Virus record (IMG/VR): IMGVR_UViG_3300043009_000039
Location: 1-64,000 of that record
Direction: 5' to 3' (one strand)
Length of the DNA stretch: 64,000 bases
Source: a virus
Taxonomy: Duplodnaviria > Caudoviricetes
Shown: positions 957 through 62,443 of the stretch, piece by piece
How the letters are laid out: every line of letters begins with the position of its first letter
Numbering within the stretch: the first letter of the stretch is position 1
The notes under the pieces: generated by a model
Told to the model about the DNA's origin: nothing
Database searches by the model: none
The model's input: only the letters and a program-made list of their open reading frames with translations
Translations under genes and position numbers: made by a program

Positions 957-1799
957 TTATGCGTTGAGTTTATCTAATAAAGCCTCTATTTCGTCCAGAG
1001 AGCCACCAATTTGGTCTACATAATTCTTTGCCGCATCGGCTTGCTCTTTGGCTTCGTTCGCGATTGTGGTCGCCTCAGTTGCCGCAGAATTAGCCGCGGA
1101 AGCCGCGGAGTTTGCGTTGCTTACAGCGGTCTCGGTCGCGGTCTCGCGTTCTTTCTCGGCGTTTTGGCGAGCCGTTTCCGCTTCGACTCTTTCGTTTTCA
1201 GCGGAAACGCGCTTGGTTTCAGCTTCGACGCGGGAGTTTTCTGCCGACGCACGTTCTTCTTCCGCTTGTTTTACCTCATTCTCCAAATCGTCGAAGTCTT
1301 TAAGAGCCGCGTTAAGCGTAGGCTCGAACTTCGCGTAGAGATTGTCCGTCAGGTTCTGTTTGTCCTCGTCCGTGAGTGAAGAATAGAGCAGGTCGTCGCC
1401 TTTATCCCCTTTATCACCTTTGATAAACGGCAGGGTCTTTTCAATCTCTGCCGCCATAGGAGTGTCACCCAAGCCCGTGACGAGCTGAATCTCCAAGCCG
1501 AAAGGATAAACGGTCGCTTGTTTTCCGTCGGGGTAGATTTTATTCTCGGGGTCGAGCGTGACTTTCGCTTTAAGCGTGCCCGCTGAAAGTCGGTGATTAT
1601 CCATGACGATATGAAGTCGTCCCTCGTCGTCGAAGCAGTTTGTAAACACGTCGTCAACTCGTGAAGCGACGTAACAGCTTAGCCCTGTGGTCGTGAACAC
1701 AATCGTGAAATCACACGTCGGCACGCCAATGTCAACCCCCCGCGAGTCGACAAGCGAGAGGTAGAAGTCGAAGTCTGATTTGTAGTTTACTGTTGTCAT
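957..1799 (-). CDS. Baseplate/tail-fibre attachment protein (BppU-like N-domain, GDK triplets, coiled-coil stalk)
   Basis: N-terminal beta-rich domain, GDKGDKGD and AE..R heptad repeats; position in tail cluster. Confidence 0.55.
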   Translation of the reverse strand: MTTVNYKSDFDFYLSLVDSRGVDIGVPTCDFTIVFTTTGLSCYVASRVDDVFTNCFDDEGRLHIVMDNHRLSAGTLKAKVTLDPENKIYPDGKQATVYPFGLEIQLVTGLGDTPMAAEIEKTLPFIKGDKGDKGDDLLYSSLTDEDKQNLTDNLYAKFEPTLNAALKDFDDLENEVKQAEEERASAENSRVEAETKRVSAENERVEAETARQNAEKERETATETAVSNANSAASAANSAATEATTIANEAKEQADAAKNYVDQIGGSLDEIEALLDKLNA

Positions 1800-2227
1800 G
1801 CTAAAATATCTTGAAGTAAAATAATCGTTTTGACGTCGTAGTCATTCGAAGCGACAAACTTTTCAAACGCCTCCTCGCCGAGCCGCTTGTATTCCGGCTT
1901 GACCTCGCGAGAAAGTTCTTCGGACAAACACTTTTCGACACGCGAGCGATATTCTGTAAGGCGTCTGTTAACCTCTTCGCGTTCTTCAAGCGTCAGGCTT
2001 GTATTTTCGCCCTCTTTATACCACTGACGATACTTGGCTATAATCTCTTCGTGCCCGTCCTCTTTGAGTCGTTCCTCCGCGTCGCGTCTGAACTCGTCGA
2101 AATCCAATGCGATAGGTTTGATAGCCCGAGTCGCTTTGATAACCAAGAACTTGTCCTCGTCGTTCATCTTTGTGAGCTTTGCCGAGGCGATAACCTCGTA
2201 AGCCGCTTTAATGTCCGCCACTCTCAT
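1796..2227 (-). CDS. Hypothetical protein, tail-fibre cluster (possible assembly chaperone)
   Basis: 143-aa ORF, translationally coupled (ATGA) to the downstream gene. Confidence 0.6.
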   Translation of the reverse strand: MRVADIKAAYEVIASAKLTKMNDEDKFLVIKATRAIKPIALDFDEFRRDAEERLKEDGHEEIIAKYRQWYKEGENTSLTLEEREEVNRRLTEYRSRVEKCLSEELSREVKPEYKRLGEEAFEKFVASNDYDVKTIILLQDILA

Positions 2228-2565: not shown

Positions 2566-3801
2566 TTACATTTCAGTCCATCCGTCCGAGCCGACGTGAT
2601 AATTCAATTCACCGTCAAACAGCACGGTGCCTTGTCTGAAAACGGCAACTTCCACGGTGGTATTCACACTTGTTTCGTTGACCGTCGAGAATAAGTTCTC
2701 GAAGTACAAATATACATTAACCGTGCTGTTATTTGCTATAATTATCGAATTTTCGCTCGTCAGACCGTTAGGTTTGTTTGTGGATATAAGGCTTGAATAT
2801 CTCGTGACGGTGTTAACGCCGTCAAAGTATTGTGCCGCCGAGAAGTCGCTTGCGCTGAAAGTTCTGTCCTCGCCGCTTGTGTTTGTAAGACTCAGGCGGA
2901 CGAGCAAATCTTTCGTTGTGTTGCTCATTGCCGACGTGCCGCCGTACTCGTTGATGCAATACTGCGCCTCCTTATATTCGCTCTCGAAGTCGGGGGCAAA
3001 TGCCACGCCGCTCGCGGCGTCTTCCACACCGCCGCCGCCGCTTACAGCGTCGGACTTGACGACAAGTGTCATCGACGACGGGTTGTAACTGCTTTCAGCG
3101 GTTCTCGGGAAAGGTATATATTGCCACTTATCATCTTCCTTGTATGCAAGGCACATACAAATCGTATGGGTTGCGGCTGAAAGCGTGCTGACGTCAATAG
3201 ACAATTGAGAACCGTAAAACTCTCCGCTGTCCTCGTCGAGAATCGGGTTCTTCCCAATATAGGTCTTATTGCCGTCTATTGCCGCCACCGCATAAGTCTT
3301 GCGCAGGTCAAGCTCAGCTGTAAAGTCTGTGGCTTGCAGGTTTGTAGTGCTGTCGGCGGGGTCGCCGTTTATATTAACAACGAGCGTTTTTTGTTTTGCA
3401 TCGGAAATGTTCATCTCCCAACCCTCCGACGGATATACCACCTGCAACGGCGGTACGGCGTAATGGTCGTAACCGTTAAAGTCAAGCAACCTCGCAGGAC
3501 AGCTTTCAAGACCGTTTTCCAAGTAATACCATTTGTTGCCCGCGGCGTCCTCTATCGAGTCAGCGGATAAAGTTGTGCCTCCCGAAATTTTGTCGGGTAT
3601 CGAGATGCCGTGATTTGCCTCTTTGCGCTGTTCGTCCGTCAGCGGCAGAAGCGTATCCACCGCCAACGGCTTATATCGCGCAAAGGGATTTATTTTGCCG
3701 CTCTGACAAAGCGTGCGCAAGTCGTTCGAGGTTTCCCCCAAGCATTTCTTCACGTCGCCAATGCTGACGGGTGCGCCTATAATTCCGCTATCGTAGCTCA
3801 T
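2566..3801 (-). CDS. Tail-fibre-associated structural protein, 411 aa
   Basis: N-terminal APVSIGDVKKCLG...INPFARYKP motif typical of Bacteroidetes phage tail-fibre companion proteins; beta-rich C-terminus. Confidence 0.6.
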   Translation of the reverse strand: MSYDSGIIGAPVSIGDVKKCLGETSNDLRTLCQSGKINPFARYKPLAVDTLLPLTDEQRKEANHGISIPDKISGGTTLSADSIEDAAGNKWYYLENGLESCPARLLDFNGYDHYAVPPLQVVYPSEGWEMNISDAKQKTLVVNINGDPADSTTNLQATDFTAELDLRKTYAVAAIDGNKTYIGKNPILDEDSGEFYGSQLSIDVSTLSAATHTICMCLAYKEDDKWQYIPFPRTAESSYNPSSMTLVVKSDAVSGGGGVEDAASGVAFAPDFESEYKEAQYCINEYGGTSAMSNTTKDLLVRLSLTNTSGEDRTFSASDFSAAQYFDGVNTVTRYSSLISTNKPNGLTSENSIIIANNSTVNVYLYFENLFSTVNETSVNTTVEVAVFRQGTVLFDGELNYHVGSDGWTEM

Positions 3802-3803
3802 AC

Positions 3804-6800
3804 TTACTCTCCTTTCGCTATTACATCTTTACTTGAAACAATCGTCTTGTCGAAACATATCGTGTCGTTGTCCTCGTCGTAGGTTATCGTGCATCCTCCG
3901 AGCCGAATCGACTGCGTTGACGGGACATACAGCCCGGCGTTAAACGTTGCCGAACCGTCGGCGGTAATATCATTCGCCGCAAGCGGGAATATGCATCTCA
4001 CCTCGTCGGCTCGGTCGCCGCCTCCGTCGTCAAACGTTATCTGAAAAGCGTCTGTGCTACTGTAAGAGCTTCTCACATACAGTCCTTCACCGACGACAAA
4101 AACAAGCTCATTTTCGTTACGCTCGCCGTTTATGCTTGACGTGTATAAATCCTGCGCCTCCACCGAGTCAAATTCAACCGCGGCGGATATATCCAAGTTT
4201 TGGTCAATCGAGTCGAGGTAGGACTTGTTATCGTGCGTATGCTTCTTGTCCGCGGCATCAGCCCAATCTATAAAATCGTTGGCGTAGTAGGTTTTCAAGA
4301 CGCCGTTGTTGTAGATGCCGAGCCACTTGTAAATATAAGCACCGCCGATATAAGCGTATTGCCGTTCGAGATACAAATCACCTGAAAGCGACAAGTCACT
4401 CGCAATCTCGGTCAGTCGGGTGTCGCCCTGAATATCGTTATAATACCCGAAGCGAATCCAATAATCGTCCTCACTTGCATCCGTGACACACAGACTGCCC
4501 TTATCGTCGTTGCGGATAATCCATTCAAGCGGACTTATCCTTTCGTCAACCGTAGCCTTGTCGTAGACGTCCGTAATGCCGTAACCCGAAAGGGTCGTCG
4601 GTTTGCCCGTCAGCTCCGAGAAAGCGAGCGAGGACTTTACGGCAAACGACCCGAGTCCGCTTATTTCCGATGCCGTATAGCTTGGCTTTGTCGAAGCCTT
4701 TGCCCAAGCGTAGACGTCCGATGCGGGAAGCGTTGTCGGAATATCGGAAGCAAGCGCGAAGGTGGAGCCTTTCATAACGGTAATCGTAGTGCCTGACTTT
4801 ACGACTGACGTAACCGCATTCCCGTTCCCTGAATTTGCCACGGTCATGCCACCGCCCGATTCGAGTGTCGCAACGCGGGAGTTGAGATTCTGTCCCAATG
4901 CCGCCGACAATACCCAATCCGCTTTCGAGGAATCATACTCGCCCCACGCATCAAGTCGGTTGTAATCCGAACCGCCCGAAGAGTTTGACGAGTCAGCCCC
5001 CATTGCGCTCACGAAGCTGTCCGAATAGAAGCCGTATTTTGCACGTATGGCGTAGATAGGAGTATCTGCTGTACCGATGTTCACCTTTTCGAACAAATCG
5101 TCAAATACGCTCTTTTCAAGCTTTGTATTGATGCTGTCTGTAAGAGCGGTCGTTACGTGCCTTGTGTCATCCGAAATATGCGACGAAAGCGTAGCCGCAG
5201 AAGCGACGTCGTTGATGTCTATCGTACCGTCCTTGCTCGGATTGAACGTCCCGACAAGCGAACCGTTCTTGTTTACGGTCAACGTGTAGAGCGTTTGATG
5301 CGAGGTGAGATAATTCGAGTCGTTTGTCAGCTGGCTTGTTTTCGTCGGTATCTGTGAGGTAAGCGCAAACGTGGCATCCTTGGTCACAGTGACTTTCGTC
5401 CCCGACTTGCTGATTGACGTTACCGCGTTACCGCTTCCCGACGTGGAGAATGTCAGCGCACTGCCTCCTTCGAGGGATTTTACCCGGGTGTTCAAGTCCT
5501 GCCCCAACGCTGCGGAGAGAACCCAATCGGCTTTGGTCGAGTCGTATTCGCCCCAAGAGTCCAATCTACTGTAGTCGGAACCTCCCCCGCTTTCGTTATC
5601 CACTCCGAAGCCCAAAGCGCTGACTCCGCCCGTTGCGTAGAAATTAACGGCATCTCCGTCAAAGCGCGTAGCATAAAGTGCGTTGTTGTCGTTGTCCCAT
5701 TTCAGTATGGCGTTGCCCACTCTCACTTCCGATAAAGGTACACTTGCGGCTTGTCGTGCCGTAACCTCGTCCACTTCAATATAGGTCTGTCCGTTATCAC
5801 GCACCCCGAACATGCCGCCGCTGATACCCTCCAAAAACTCGCCCACCTCAAAGGCTTTATCCGAGGAAAGTTTGTACGGCGTTCTGTCGTTGGAAGTTTT
5901 ATTGAGATAGTCTTTGCTTACCGTGGCTGTCGTGGCAACTTTCGTGGTCACAGTGCTGTCTACCACAGCTTTTACAGCCTTGTCACTCGCCACCATATCA
6001 GCCGCCTGAGCCGCCGCGCTCTTTATAAAGCCCTCGCTGACTCTGAACTTATCTTCAAGCGTAAACTTGATTTCAGGAAGAGATTCATTTGCTTTGCATG
6101 AAACTTCAAAGGTTGTTATAAACAATTCATAAACTATTCCGTTATACACAACCTTAATCTTGGAATTTTCGTCAATTTCAGGCAAGATGTCCTGATTCTT
6201 GGCGAAGAATACACGAGAGCAGGAAATATCGAACGTGAACTGTTCCTCGTTGTTCTCGGCCATGTATTTGATTGCAAGCTCTTCGCCTTTCTTTTCTGCG
6301 GCATAGATATACTCGTTAGGCAGGGCAATGTCGATGATATTGAACTTATCGCCCACCGCTGGTTTGTAATTGTTCGCCTTGTTCGGGATAATCACGCCGA
6401 ACGTGTCAATATCCTTTTGCAAAACGAGCCAAACCGAATTGTTCTCGGTGTCCTGCTGTGAGTCGATAAACTTGCTTTCGCTAATCTTCTGAGATTGCGA
6501 CCCTGCTGCGATGTAACCGTTTTTATCCACCTGCACGGGGTTCTTGAATACCTGCACCCCGTTCTCCGCGGTCTCTACAATCTGCACTTTGAACTTACAG
6601 CCGTTACAAGCGCCGCTAATCATTTGGAGGGTCATTGCCCCCGTCTGAGCCGCCGCCTCAAAGAGATTGAAGCCGTATTCTCCGTCGAACTTCGGGATTC
6701 TCGCGTAAAAGTAAGAATGCTTGTAGTTGGAAACATCGGAGTCGTCGTCTGTATCGTTTTGAGTGTCGTCGTTGTCGTCCGAGTCATAGGCGATGTCGAC

Positions 6801-11912: not shown

Positions 11913-13550
11913 TCAACACCAAAAAGTTTCGTCATAAATATTAGCGCCGCCGTTATTGCCATCTTCATAGTCGTCGTTTTGGGGCGCAACTTCAAGCTCC
12001 GTACCGTACTCGCAGAAGATATACTGCGACATGACCATATGAATGGCATCGCATAAGTCCATAGACTTGGAACCCGTCAGTCGACTGTTCATGGCTTTCT
12101 TCGTCAGGAGCTTCTTCTTACCCGAAAAGTCCTCTTCAAACTCCACAACGCCGCACTCTTCCGCGAACTCGTTCAGGATTGTGTACTGCTGTCCGCTACT
12201 GTGCTCGTATATGGAGTTTGCGACTTTCTCGTCAATGGAGAATCTTCCGCTATTGATTGCCTCGGCAAGACGCATATAGCACTCGTCCTTCATGCGCTTG
12301 AAGTTTCGCATATAGATGCCTCGCGCCGGGACAAACGAGATATACGAGATGGCTTCGGGGATGTAGTCAATCATGTATGCCGCACGCTGACCGTCGTATA
12401 TTATATGACTGTCCGCGATGCCGTGCTTCAATGCCATCCTCTTTATCCAATCGGCATTCTGCCTTGGGGTCGATTTAGGCAGAATCATATAGTCGAATAC
12501 ATGAAAACCGTCAATGGCTAAAATTACCGTGGCGTCCTTTCCCGTGTCTGCAAGGTCGGCGCATATATACTTCCTGCCATTCGTACACGGGCCGTTTTCT
12601 ACAACCAAACGCGCATTCTTTGGTTGTATGAGCTGATTCTCGGAAGAGTCCATATCCACGAGCCAATTACCGAGCAGGAGCGCTTCACCTTCTTTACCGC
12701 TGACGTTACCTACGTAGTCTCTGTTGGCTCCAAGGAGAGCTTTGTTTTCCGCAAGATTGCCGAGGATAAATGTAAAGGACTTGATAAGGTTCTCGTAAGT
12801 AATCGTATCATCCTTCATCATCTTTAATTTTCGGTCTATCGACGCCTTGGCTTTCCAATAAACTTCTTCTTTGGTTTCGCCCCAAACGTAATCATCAACC
12901 GAGTCGCCGTCGAGATAGACATACATAACCATGCCGCTCTTCTCGGGCGGTACAAAACCGTCCTCGCCGATGTAGTGTTTCAGCATTCGCCGAACCCAAT
13001 GACTTTTTGACGGGTTGGTTGTCGCTCTAACCTTCCCCGTCCATTTACCCGTACCTCGGGCGCGGGATGCAAGATAGTTCCAAGTGTAAAAACTAAACCC
13101 CGTCAACTCTTCGAAGAATATTGCGTCCGCTTGAAGCCCTTTGAAAGTTTCTCTCACCTTCTGCGGGTTCTCGTCGGCTATCTGTCGGCATTCAATCCAA
13201 GCACCCGTCTGTTTGAACGTGATGCGTGGATTCTCGGAAATCTTTATAGAGATGGAATCGCCGTATGCCATTTCAAAATCCGATACAATACCCCCCGCGC
13301 TTTTAAGTTCTCCGAGGGTTCTGCGGAAGAATACCGCGCGGTAGTTGCTGTCTAAAAATGGTTCAGAGTTCGCTAAAATTGCCCCAAATGACTTGCCACC
13401 GCCAAGGGTACCGCCAAAAATGGCTATATCAACGGAAGTTCTGACGAATTTCTCTTGCCCGCCCGCTTGTGGACTAATGATTTTTATTTTGCTTTCTTCT
13501 TGCGCCATAACTATTCCTTTATAGTTGCCGCTTCCCATTATATTCGACAC
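11913..13550 (-). CDS. terL: Terminase large subunit
   Basis: SPQAGGQ Q-motif, Walker A GGTLGGGKS, Walker B IFFEELT, coupling motif RATTNP, RNase H-like nuclease (ICADLADTGKD; SMDLCDA). Confidence 0.93.
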   Translation of the reverse strand: MSNIMGSGNYKGIVMAQEESKIKIISPQAGGQEKFVRTSVDIAIFGGTLGGGKSFGAILANSEPFLDSNYRAVFFRRTLGELKSAGGIVSDFEMAYGDSISIKISENPRITFKQTGAWIECRQIADENPQKVRETFKGLQADAIFFEELTGFSFYTWNYLASRARGTGKWTGKVRATTNPSKSHWVRRMLKHYIGEDGFVPPEKSGMVMYVYLDGDSVDDYVWGETKEEVYWKAKASIDRKLKMMKDDTITYENLIKSFTFILGNLAENKALLGANRDYVGNVSGKEGEALLLGNWLVDMDSSENQLIQPKNARLVVENGPCTNGRKYICADLADTGKDATVILAIDGFHVFDYMILPKSTPRQNADWIKRMALKHGIADSHIIYDGQRAAYMIDYIPEAISYISFVPARGIYMRNFKRMKDECYMRLAEAINSGRFSIDEKVANSIYEHSSGQQYTILNEFAEECGVVEFEEDFSGKKKLLTKKAMNSRLTGSKSMDLCDAIHMVMSQYIFCEYGTELEVAPQNDDYEDGNNGGANIYDETFWC

Positions 13551-56839: not shown

Positions 56840-57193
56840 TTAAGCAAAGTAATTCTTTACAGTTTGGTAGTCCAGTCCGTAACGCTTACGTATTCGCGCA
56901 ATTTCGGCGTTAAATTCGCGTGCTGAGTCGAAACAGCACAGTTCGAGGGCTTTAATCAATTCAAGCCCGTAAAGGCTCGGATTATTCACCTCGATAGCTC
57001 GCAGTTCGCCCCGACGGTTTCGGGCGCAATTATCCACGAATTTTATCGTTTCTTTGTACCCTTTGCCCGCCCCTTTCTTTTTTCGGCTCGATACGACGTA
57101 TTTGCCCCGATTTTTCGGTTCAGGCTCGCACGGTTCAGGCTCGCACGCTTTTTTAGCTTTATAAAGCCCTTCATAGTACTCTAATAAGTTCAT
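56840..57193 (-). CDS. Early cassette 2, hypothetical (downstream of the hammerhead)
   Basis: 117 aa. Confidence 0.7.
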   Translation of the reverse strand: MNLLEYYEGLYKAKKACEPEPCEPEPKNRGKYVVSSRKKKGAGKGYKETIKFVDNCARNRRGELRAIEVNNPSLYGLELIKALELCCFDSAREFNAEIARIRKRYGLDYQTVKNYFA

Positions 57194-57214: not shown

Positions 57215-57273
57215 AGTCCGACGCCCAGTAGTAAGGGCGTTTCGTCGCAATTCTCAGCGACTCTTCAGGGACT
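57215..57273 (-). ncRNA. Type I hammerhead ribozyme; predicted cleavage after GUC, between 57220 and 57219
   Basis: Minus strand: AGUCC CUGAAGA GUCGC-UGAGAAUU-GCGAC GAA ACGCCC-UUACUACU-GGGCGU C GGACU; all core nucleotides and three stems present. Confidence 0.88.
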
Positions 57274-57531
57274 TTAAAACTGCATCGTTTCAAAAGATAC
57301 AATTTCAAAGTAATTCAAATTCACCTCGATTTTCGGGCACAGTTTTTCCCCGAAAAAGTACAGTTTAACGCCAGTAAAGCGCATGAAACGGTTTATAAGC
57401 CGCTCAGGCGTGTCTTGATAACGGTCGTTGAAATACGATACGACGAACCCGTTTTCAACTCTTAATCTCGGTTCAATCAGGGCAAATTCAAGCCCTGATT
57501 CTTTTTCGCGTAATACGATTTTGTAGTTCAT
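57274..57531 (-). CDS. Early cassette 1, hypothetical (downstream of mini-tRNA C)
   Basis: 85 aa; its stop abuts the hammerhead. Confidence 0.7.
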   Translation of the reverse strand: MNYKIVLREKESGLEFALIEPRLRVENGFVVSYFNDRYQDTPERLINRFMRFTGVKLYFFGEKLCPKIEVNLNYFEIVSFETMQF

Positions 57532-57558
57532 AACAGTAAGTATTTTAGTTCAACATAG

Positions 57559-57606
57559 TAAGGGCGCGGGGGTTCGAACCCCGTAAAAATTCCACAATTC
57601 GCCCCT
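57559..57606 (-). ncRNA. Anticodon-less tRNA-like element C (48 nt)
   Basis: AGGGGCG / 16-nt linker containing GG / CGGGG-TTCGAAC-CCCCG / CGCCCTT-A: 7-bp acceptor stem plus 5-bp T-stem with a canonical T-loop. Confidence 0.7.
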
Positions 57607-58140
57607 GCATCGGTTTACGTCAACGATGCACTTTGACGTTTGCCCCTTAATTCAGGGGCTTAATAACCAAAAACTTAATTATGTTTTGCCGCTACCTTGT
57701 TACGTGCTCGGCACGCCTCCTGCATTTACTTTCATAGTTCGTCCAGTACATAGGACGGACGGCCAACTAAGCGCAATTATATTAGCGCAATTCGTTGACG
57801 TTTGGATAATTCATTCACTGCAGTTGTCAAGACGGCTCAAATATTTTTATCGTTAAATCCTAAAAACGTCCTGCATCAACCGCTAAGCCGGAGCGACTTT
57901 TTTGCTCGAAAAAAGCGCAATTTTTCCCCTTTCAAGATTTTACCCTTGTCCAGTTCGGTTTTTTAATTCTCTTAACAATTTGACCCTCTTCCTTAACAAA
58001 ACGTTACACTTGGTAACTTCGATTAACTCTTTTACAACCCGATTTAAACTTTTTTATGATTTCGGGCGTCCTACTTGAGGAAAAGTCTCTTTTTTGTTAA
58101 TTTGGATAGTCAAATTATTAAAATTTGCCAAAGAACTCCG

Positions 58141-58197
58141 TTAGAGTTCTGACCAACTCTAACGCTACAAAAGTAGGTATAATCGATTATATGCAAA
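58141..58197 (-). promoter_or_regulatory. Early promoter TTTG-N18-TACTTTTG followed by an 8-bp 5' hairpin (58141-58162)
   Basis: -33 at 58194-58197 and -7 at 58168-58175 on the minus strand; TTAGAGTT/AACTCTAA hairpin. Confidence 0.55.
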
Positions 58198-58483: not shown

Positions 58484-58545
58484 ACTACCTACTACCTACT
58501 ACCTACTACCTACTACCTACTATCTATATAAGTAAGTAGTAGGTA
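58484..58545. repeat. Tandem (ACTACCT)x5 plus one degenerate copy and an inverted partial copy
   Basis: 58484-58525 tandem; AGTAGTAGGTA at 58535-58545. Confidence 0.9.
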
Positions 58546-62037: not shown

Positions 62038-62068
62038 TTTGAATTTGAGAAAAGTGTCTTTATATTTG
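62038..62068 (+). promoter_or_regulatory. Consensus Bacteroidetes promoter TTTG-N19-TATATTTG
   Basis: TTTG 62038-62041, TATATTTG 62061-62068. Confidence 0.7.
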
Positions 62069-62235: not shown

Positions 62236-62286
62236 GGGTGCGGCGCAGTCGGGCGCTTATCGGGTTCGAATCCCGCGCATCCACCA
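62236..62286 (+). ncRNA. Anticodon-less tRNA-like element A (51 nt) with G3.U70, A73 and encoded CCA
   Basis: GGGTGCG / GCGC-AGTCGG-GCGC TTAT / CGGG-TTCGAAT-CCCG / CGCATCC-A-CCA. Confidence 0.75.
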
Positions 62287-62394: not shown

Positions 62395-62443
62395 GGGAGC
62401 GCCGCGCGGGCGGTCGTCGAAGGTTCGAGTCCTTCCGCTCCCA
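62395..62443 (+). ncRNA. Anticodon-less tRNA-like element B (49 nt)
   Basis: GGGAGCG / CCGC-GCGG-GCGG TCGTC / GAAGG-TTCGAGT-CCTTC / CGCTCCC-A. Confidence 0.75.

Follow-up and report, generated by a model that had tools for sequence, protein, structure and literature searches.

An uncultured phage was found to carry, directly before the first gene of its leftward early array, a 48-nt element (mini-tRNA C) with the top half of a tRNA and no anticodon arm. We propose that this element is probably a cis-acting processing signal of the t-element type, at which the host RNase P and RNase Z would sever a leader of approximately 550 nt from the first early mRNA. The element has a defined tRNA-like structure, is rarely expected by chance, is conserved in position among diverged relatives and is interchangeable with self-cleaving ribozymes. 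The window, i.e., the whole stretch of DNA that was analysed, covers positions 1 to 64,000 of an IMG/VR phage record with a length of 85,821 bp.

Architecture and rarity of the tRNA-like element

Direct reading of the minus strand from 57606 to 57559 gave AGGGGCG / AATTGTGGAATTTTTA / CGGGG / TTCGAAC / CCCCG / CGCCCTT / A, in exact agreement with the coordinates and architecture given in the initial annotation for a mini-tRNA in the first spacer of the early array. The acceptor strands (57606..57600 and 57566..57560) form seven pairs, A1-U72 and G2.U71 followed by five G-C or C-G pairs (G3-C70 included). The T arm comprises a stem of five G-C pairs (57583..57579 with 57571..57567), closed by G53-C61, and a 7-nt loop (57578..57572), UUCGAAC, which matches TTCRANY with U54 and A58 in place. 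The GGTTCRANYCC motif is present as GGTTCGAACCC (57580..57570), alongside the 7-bp acceptor stem. The discriminator is A57559; no CCA is encoded, and CUA comes next. The acceptor and T stems are separated by a 16-nt linker (57599..57584) containing the GG that had been assigned to an unpaired, stemless D-loop analogue. The GG is there, but the stemless character of the linker was not established, because a weak 4-bp D-like hairpin (AAUU-GUGG-AAUU) can form in it, as in the sibling elements A and B, which have GC-rich counterparts (GCGC-AGUCGG-GCGC and CCGC-GCGG-GCGG, respectively). No ORFs of at least 40 aa overlapping C were found on either strand.

The rarity of this architecture was evaluated with a strict descriptor (7/7 acceptor pairs, linker of 8-26 nt, 5-bp T stem, TTCRANN loop and a 3' acceptor strand abutting the T stem). 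The 85,821-bp genome contained two such sites (B and C), in comparison to a mean of 0.03 per dinucleotide shuffle, and none of the 300 shuffles reached two. Across approximately 1 Mb of other phage loci, the sole match outside copies of the same phage lay inside a genuine tRNA-Cys. Thermodynamic folding of C was unremarkable (z = -1.3), with the acceptor stem kept and a shifted T hairpin preferred; the case for C was therefore built on architecture and comparison and not on thermodynamics.

In total, the genome carries three mini-tRNAs. Mini-tRNA A (62236..62286, plus strand) has a 4-bp T stem and combines G3.U70, A73 and an encoded CCA, which together make up the alanine identity set. Mini-tRNA B (62395..62443, plus strand) has a perfect 7-bp acceptor stem, a 5-bp T stem and no encoded CCA; its score against the Rfam tRNA model was below the threshold (20.7 bits). 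Both elements lie in the rightward early leader, at least 310 nt upstream of the Ant gene, and A is not located beside a start codon. The relative L089 has a real tRNA-Met (5550-5624), with its own promoter-like motif and without an encoded CCA, upstream of a KilA-N/ANT gene. Because this tRNA fills the A/B slot, A and B may descend from, or replace, a tRNA gene.

Genome and transcript context

The genome sequence suggests a phage of the Bacteroidota type. The large terminase was nearest to those of Bacteroides and Phocaeicola phages, with an identity of only ~25%. Many of the homologues of the terminase (window 11913-13550) at 50-65% identity were ~880 aa long and carried homing-endonuclease/LAGLIDADG domains (PF05204, PF14528); these longer homologues probably contain inteins, whereas the window copy is intein-free.

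A leftward early promoter was predicted on the minus strand at 58168..58197 (TTTG-N18-TACTTTTG, corresponding to the Bacteroidota-type TTTG...TAnnTTTG), with a start near 58160. The promoter pattern matched five times in the window (1.29 expected), and the only other intergenic match among these (62038-62068) faced the rightward early genes. From the predicted start to C extends an early leader of ~550 nt (57607..58160, minus strand) with no minus-strand ORF of at least 40 aa. A look-up of sequencing runs containing this sequence listed no RNA run. A 10-bp hairpin (window 58139-58164, minus strand), only a few nucleotides from the predicted start, would fold at the 5' terminus of the primary leader. 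In the non-coding control region (window 58485-58520, minus strand), GTAGGTA was also observed in five tandem copies. Two assembly contigs of the same phage end in this area, L002 within the repeat and L003 ~130 nt off; the repeat could be an iteron-like or origin feature, or a mere assembly break point.

Immediately before C, a hairpin (57607..57639, minus strand; GCAUCG-N11-CGAUGC) abuts the 5' end of the element without any gap. The complementarities for which a hairpin and a possible pseudoknot had been proposed at this site were present as written, GCATCG/CGATGC within 57629..57607 and ACGTCAA (57639..57633) against TTGACGT (57623..57617), forming an alternative or pseudoknotted helix. 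The pseudoknot geometry is conceivable (S1, ACGUCAA/UUGACGU; S2, GCAUCG/CGAUGC; loops of 3, 0 and 4 nt), but the structure belongs to a single sequence and showed no conservation. In most relatives, some hairpin precedes the element, with a sequence differing from that of the window. Strong hairpins followed by a U run, resembling intrinsic terminators, were observed directly before the tRNA-like elements of L118 (~1030-1060) and L125 (~983-1022); leader transcription may be attenuated just upstream of these two elements.

Downstream of C, the 27-nt distance to the ATG of ORF1 reported previously proved exact (spacer 57558..57532, ATG at 57531). This remainder (57532..57558, minus strand), left after the predicted cut, is akin to the AACCAATAAAAC...ATG leader of the array, and the 3' flank of C, ACTATGTTGAACTAAAAT, parallels ACTATGTTTAACCAATAAAT downstream of the L118 element. 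ORF1 (57274..57531, minus strand, 85 aa) is the first of about 33 small genes in the leftward early array, and no protein family was found for it. ORF2 (56840..57193, minus strand, 117 aa) belongs to a small conserved early-gene family and served as the anchor for the comparison of slots. The array is built of units consisting of a plain GC-rich hairpin, ~8 nt, a AACCAATAAAAC-type (AACCAAT) leader and an ATG, and C holds the hairpin position of the first unit. The other array hairpins are simple stems of 7-14 bp with small loops. The bulged 7+5 geometry and the 7-nt TTCRANY loop are absent from all of them, so C is more than another array hairpin. The sequence GAAYTAYG was considered as a repeated operator overlapping the linker and was dropped, as it proved to be nothing more than the usual GAATTATG context around the starts of the array genes.

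Counterparts in diverged relatives

Close relatives were not found in the phage collection or IMG/VR, either by DNA or by exact peptides. The homologues of the neighbouring 255-aa protein were only identical copies of the same phage from other samples and offered no variation. A metagenome scan with an SbcC-like alignment returned only distant relatives (23-29% identity) without C-like elements, and the IMG/VR relatives G003 and G004 either had no control region or were themselves too distant. A covariance model built on the single sequence (R1) was too sequence-specific, recovering only partial T-arm matches and the L007 homologue. Diverged relatives were fetched via the conserved SbcC-like gene and then via the ORF2 family, and the stems of nine elements were compared by means of a structural descriptor and a pair table, both of them scripted.

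The early-array slot was occupied by tRNA-like elements of differing sequence in at least seven other lineages, 22-31 nt before the ORF, and all of them were on the same strand as the downstream genes. Before the first ORF, L089 carries GGTGTGG-16 nt-AGGGG TTCGAAT CCCCA-CCACACC-A (2052..2005, 22 nt away) and L008 carries GGTCACT-47 nt-GTGGG TTCGACT CCTAC-AGTGACC-ACCA (3675..3594), with a 10-bp hairpin in the linker. In the same position, AGCCACA-37 nt-GCGAG TTCAATT CTCGC-GGTGGCT-A was found in L118/L119 (28 nt away), TGGAGGT-28 nt-CGCGG TTCGACT CCGCG-ACCTCTA-C in L121/L123 (31 nt away), GGGTGTG-...-GTTAG TTCGACT CTAAC-GACACCC-ACCA in L125 and GGCTCG-...-CTGGG TTCGATT CCCAG-CGAGCT-A in L126. 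A second, 41-nt element of L121/L123, also present in L122, is located in the second spacer, 25 nt before the next ATG (AGGCGTG-AATGGTTTA-GGCGG TTCGACT CCGCC-CACGCCT-C). None of the relatives' elements was called by ARAGORN.

Elements of the C type range from 41 to 82 nt, their linkers and stems are unrelated, and their conservation is limited to the T loop. Across the nine elements, the acceptor strands of one element paired at 6.9 of 7 positions on average, in comparison to 3.7 of 7 with foreign strands. Each stem position was represented by two to four pair types, except for the unchanging G53-C61, and the T loop together with G53-C61 was kept in eight of the nine elements while the surroundings changed. 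Two loci departed from this pattern. The L007 homologue has a 7-bp outer stem, a UGGAA linker, a 4-bp inner stem and a 6-nt GUCGAG loop without a T loop, and in L120 a motif resembling the T loop occurs, but the acceptor stem is not clean. Some lineages thus dispense with the T loop, and for this slot a bulged hairpin of a plain kind may suffice. CCA comes after the discriminator in L008 and L125. Real tRNAs of the relatives lack an encoded CCA (tRNA-Met in L089 and L007, tRNA-Gln in G004), which implies that the hosts must have endonucleolytic 3' processing and CCA addition.

Further T-arm elements that ARAGORN did not call, followed by CCAACCAAT and an ATG, were observed in IMG/VR at L195 (~1269-1340, plus strand), L138 (~1640-1584, minus strand), L176 and L128/L198, and the mini-tRNA class may extend past the present phage group. 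An IMG/VR scan for a T arm combined with the CCAACCAAT leader returned mostly ordinary tRNAs, in which the CCA merges with the motif, along with a handful of non-tRNA candidates.

Positional equivalence with self-cleaving ribozymes

The spacer between ORF1 and ORF2 contains a type I hammerhead (57215..57273, minus strand) with a predicted cut at 57220/57219, which would leave a 26-nt leader on ORF2. All three stems and the core were identified (CUGAAGA, stem II GUCGC/GCGAC, GAA, stem III ACGCCC/GGGCGU, A15.1-U16.1 and GUC). In a homologous hammerhead of L126 (779-845, plus strand), stems I-III covary with those of the window, and the loop of stem II is identical (UGAGAAUU). The scores against Rfam Hammerhead_1 were 17.3 bits (window) and 19.8 bits (L126), under the cut-off of 34, so standard annotation would miss both. 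Pistol ribozymes were identified in L118 (1402-1475), L121 (1415-1487), L122 (566-638), L125 (1410-1479) and L126 (1061-1132), with Rfam scores of 63-71 bits against a cut-off of 34.5. An early gene follows each of the five directly, and it belongs to the ORF2 family in every locus but L126.

The ORF2 family, which comprised 29 representatives in a profile search, allowed the slots to be aligned; BLASTP of ORF2 retrieved the L118 member P0206 over its full length (E=7e-8) and ORF1 of L089 (E=1e-5). The spacer before the ORF2-family gene is occupied by a hammerhead in the window, by a Pistol ribozyme in L118, L121, L122 and L125, by a mini-tRNA in L089 and by a tRNA-like element in L008. In L126, the order is tRNA-like element, ORF, hammerhead, ORF, Pistol ribozyme, ORF. 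The leaders are 18-26 nt long behind the hammerhead and Pistol ribozymes (predicted cuts near the 3' side), in comparison to 22-31 nt behind the mini-tRNAs. Three mechanistically unrelated devices thus occupy equivalent positions with the same polarity, and their common denominator would be RNA cleavage just 5' of a start codon. We regard this equivalence as the decisive evidence for the proposal that C acts as a processing signal. No known ribozymes were found in the other ~31 array spacers, which carry ordinary hairpins; cutting is therefore evidently unnecessary ahead of every gene.

These positions are in line with published evidence on phage ribozymes. Hammerhead (PMC3088659) as well as Pistol and twister ribozymes (reviewed in PMC6765202) flank phage and prophage genes, and the finding that unrelated ribozymes share a location has been taken to mean that the cut matters and not the exact motif (PMC6765202). 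Phage hammerheads have been proposed to cut long polycistronic transcripts into gene-length mRNAs, and in the HF1/HF2 haloviruses a hammerhead lies 13 nt before the first early ORF, with a mapped 5' end at the cut site (PMC3088659).

Comparison with known RNA families

ARAGORN predicted no tRNA and no tmRNA in the window or the remaining genome, and C did not reach the gathering score of any Rfam family. Its best match was mascRNA-menRNA (RF01684), at 27.8 bits (E=0.017), below the cut-off of 42.5; the L089 and L126 elements also matched this family below the threshold (23.5 and 23.2 bits). The canonical tRNA model (RF00005) gave no match at E<=10. With respect to the canonical tRNA features, C has the acceptor/T stack, the TTCRANY loop, G53-C61 and the discriminator, and it is without the cloverleaf and the anticodon arm.

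The resemblance to tmRNA emphasized in the initial annotation turned out to be superficial. C and the tRNA-like domain of tmRNA share an acceptor stem, a T arm, a GG-containing D-loop analogue and the absence of an anticodon arm, which amounts to generic mimicry of the tRNA top half. The features that define tmRNA, i.e., G3:U70, an encoded CCA, the P2 helix, the pseudoknot domain and the tag ORF, are all missing from C, and the tmRNA model (RF00023) scored 12 bits against a cut-off of 47, aligning at the two ends of the model only.

Rfam 15 has no family covering the mini-tRNA elements, and we found no published description of anticodon-less tRNA mimics in phage operons. The class is missing from phage annotation because neither the tRNA finders nor Rfam 15 report its members.

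Discussion

With regard to the enzymes, the cleavages and the benefit to the phage, we infer the following course of events. Transcription from the promoter near 58160 would yield one long transcript with the ~550-nt leader, C and the about 33 small genes. At 57606, the first nucleotide of C, cleavage would fall to the host RNase P, and the leader RNA would then end in the abutting hairpin; behind the discriminator A57559, cleavage would fall to a 3' tRNA-processing nuclease. RNase Z is the likeliest nuclease for this step, because C encodes no CCA. The GG linker would stand in for the D loop. The ORF1 mRNA would be released with a standard 27-nt leader, and the 48-nt mini-tRNA would be a by-product that receives CCA. 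The benefit may consist in the removal of a structured leader or in uncoupled mRNA stabilities. RNase P, RNase Z and the CCA-adding enzyme all accept minihelices that consist of just an acceptor stem and a T arm. The earlier proposal, in which the first early mRNA would receive its 5' end through maturation of a tRNA mimic, gained comparative support from the slot, the compensatory stem changes and the equivalence with ribozymes.

Several observations count against processing. An A1-U72 pair, a C at position -1 and a 5' hairpin abutting without a spacer are not ideal for bacterial RNase P, and C carries all three. In model bacteria, CCA after the discriminator is an anti-determinant for RNase Z, and this is the arrangement of the L008 and L125 elements. 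The departures in L007 and L120, the z value of -1.3 and the spacers with hairpins only point in the same direction.

Other explanations were weighed against the same data. C might mainly encode a small, stable tRNA-like RNA which, once excised and tailed with CCA, works in trans, e.g., as a decoy or sponge, its position merely reflecting co-transcription. Its targets might be host proteins that bind the tRNA elbow or the acceptor end; candidates are a defence nuclease, a CCA-targeting toxin and RNase P. The presence of three such elements in one phage, the alanine identity set of A and its location away from a start codon speak for this reading, as does the real tRNA-Met in the A/B slot of L089, and it is compatible with processing, since the released RNA could do both. 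We nevertheless consider it unlikely: lengths of 41-82 nt, unrelated linkers and stems and conservation of the T loop alone are more readily reconciled with a cleavage signal than with a specific ligand, ribozymes that release no tRNA-like RNA fill the same slots, and C has no recognisable aminoacylation identity. It is also rather improbable that C is a structural hairpin module in which tRNA enzymes are not involved and the T loop is a legacy of a tRNA ancestor. Such a module could shield the leader RNA from 3' exonucleases, serve as an RNase III-type site or act as an insulator before the AACCAAT leader. C does take the place of the hairpin in the unit of hairpin, ~8 nt, AACCAAT leader and ATG, and L007 and L120 retain a stem without a proper T loop or acceptor stem. 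The array hairpins, however, have neither the 7+5 geometry nor a TTCRANY loop, the T loop and G53-C61 persist in eight of nine elements amid changing surroundings, and the equivalence with self-cleaving ribozymes points to cleavage over mere structure.

Two further explanations concern the origin of the sequence. Decay of a phage tRNA gene, with loss of the anticodon arm and of function, would be in keeping with the real tRNA genes found nearby in relatives and with the 3' half of C, which is nearly identical to the 3' end of bacterial tRNA-Lys. We regard such decay as very unlikely, given three independent elements in this genome, the same slot and orientation with compensatory stem changes in at least seven lineages, and 7/7 acceptor pairing that would not survive decay. 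A T arm together with a 3' acceptor strand, both copied from a tRNA, is common in phage attachment sites; that C serves integration as an attP-like duplicate of the 3' end of a host tRNA gene is nonetheless hardly credible. C also has the complementary 5' acceptor strand, for which an attP has no use, it is situated within an early transcription unit, and a partial scan of the proteins revealed no integrase. The reading is also disfavoured because the 21-mer of T arm and 3' strand occurred in only one of ~185,000 species genomes, in an unrelated Opitutia tRNA-Lys.

If C is a processing signal, one slot that accommodates a hammerhead, a Pistol ribozyme or a tRNA top half suggests selection for a defined RNA cut just 5' of an early gene. 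It further suggests that phages have two ways to this cut, a self-contained one and one that relies on the RNase P and RNase Z of the host. The logic that has been applied to the location of ribozymes (PMC6765202) would be extended to a module that depends on protein enzymes, and the tRNA-like punctuation seen in organelles and at MALAT1 would be extended into bacteriophages. The role of most self-cleaving ribozymes of bacteria and phages is still called elusive (PMC6765202), and the location of Pistol upstream of early genes provides a clear genomic context for a ribozyme class without an assigned role. A more speculative view, to which we attach little likelihood, treats the tRNA-maturation enzymes and the two unrelated ribozyme classes as interchangeable 'cut here' modules and additionally has the excised mini-tRNA act in trans. 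If this were true, the CCA-tailed mini-tRNA might, for example, occupy a host factor for the elbow or acceptor end while the phage takes over the cell, or the sibling A might be charged with alanine, and a single element would couple mRNA maturation with manipulation of the host.

Among known systems, the small tRNA-like folds at the 3' ends of MALAT1 and NEAT1 (mascRNA and MEN-beta RNAs) resemble C. There, the RNase P cut forms the 3' end of the upstream RNA, and the RNase Z cut frees a small RNA that is tailed with CCA. In contrast to C, mascRNA is a vertebrate nuclear RNA that keeps a short anticodon stem, and the two have no evolutionary link. In animal mitochondria and in tRNA-mRNA co-transcripts of bacteria and phages, tRNA-shaped units between genes direct the host tRNA enzymes to cut polycistronic RNA; this punctuation uses working tRNAs with anticodons, whereas C cannot decode. 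Plant mitochondrial t-elements, with mascRNA the nearest described counterparts of C, are non-canonical tRNA-like folds around GGTTCRANYCC, the motif by which they were discovered, and are located beside mRNA ends (Forner et al. 2007, PMC1920247). They have been interpreted as signals that direct RNase P and RNase Z in cis, their ends coincide with mRNA ends, and once released they can gain non-encoded C residues (PMC1920247). C shares with them the GGTTCRANYCC fold with an acceptor-like stem and the location at a transcript-internal boundary, on the coding strand and beside an ORF. The t-elements are organellar and usually cloverleaf-like, with experimentally mapped ends, whereas C is a 48-nt phage element with ends predicted from its sequence. 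They also differ from the phage mini-tRNAs (41-82 nt in relatives) in that the latter alternate with self-cleaving ribozymes. The phage ribozymes, in turn, share with the mini-tRNAs the slots, the orientation, a cut near the downstream gene and a proposed part in transcript processing. The ribozymes cut themselves and leave a 5'-OH and a 2',3'-cyclic phosphate, whereas cleavage at the mini-tRNA would depend on host enzymes and yield a 5'-phosphate and a 3'-OH.
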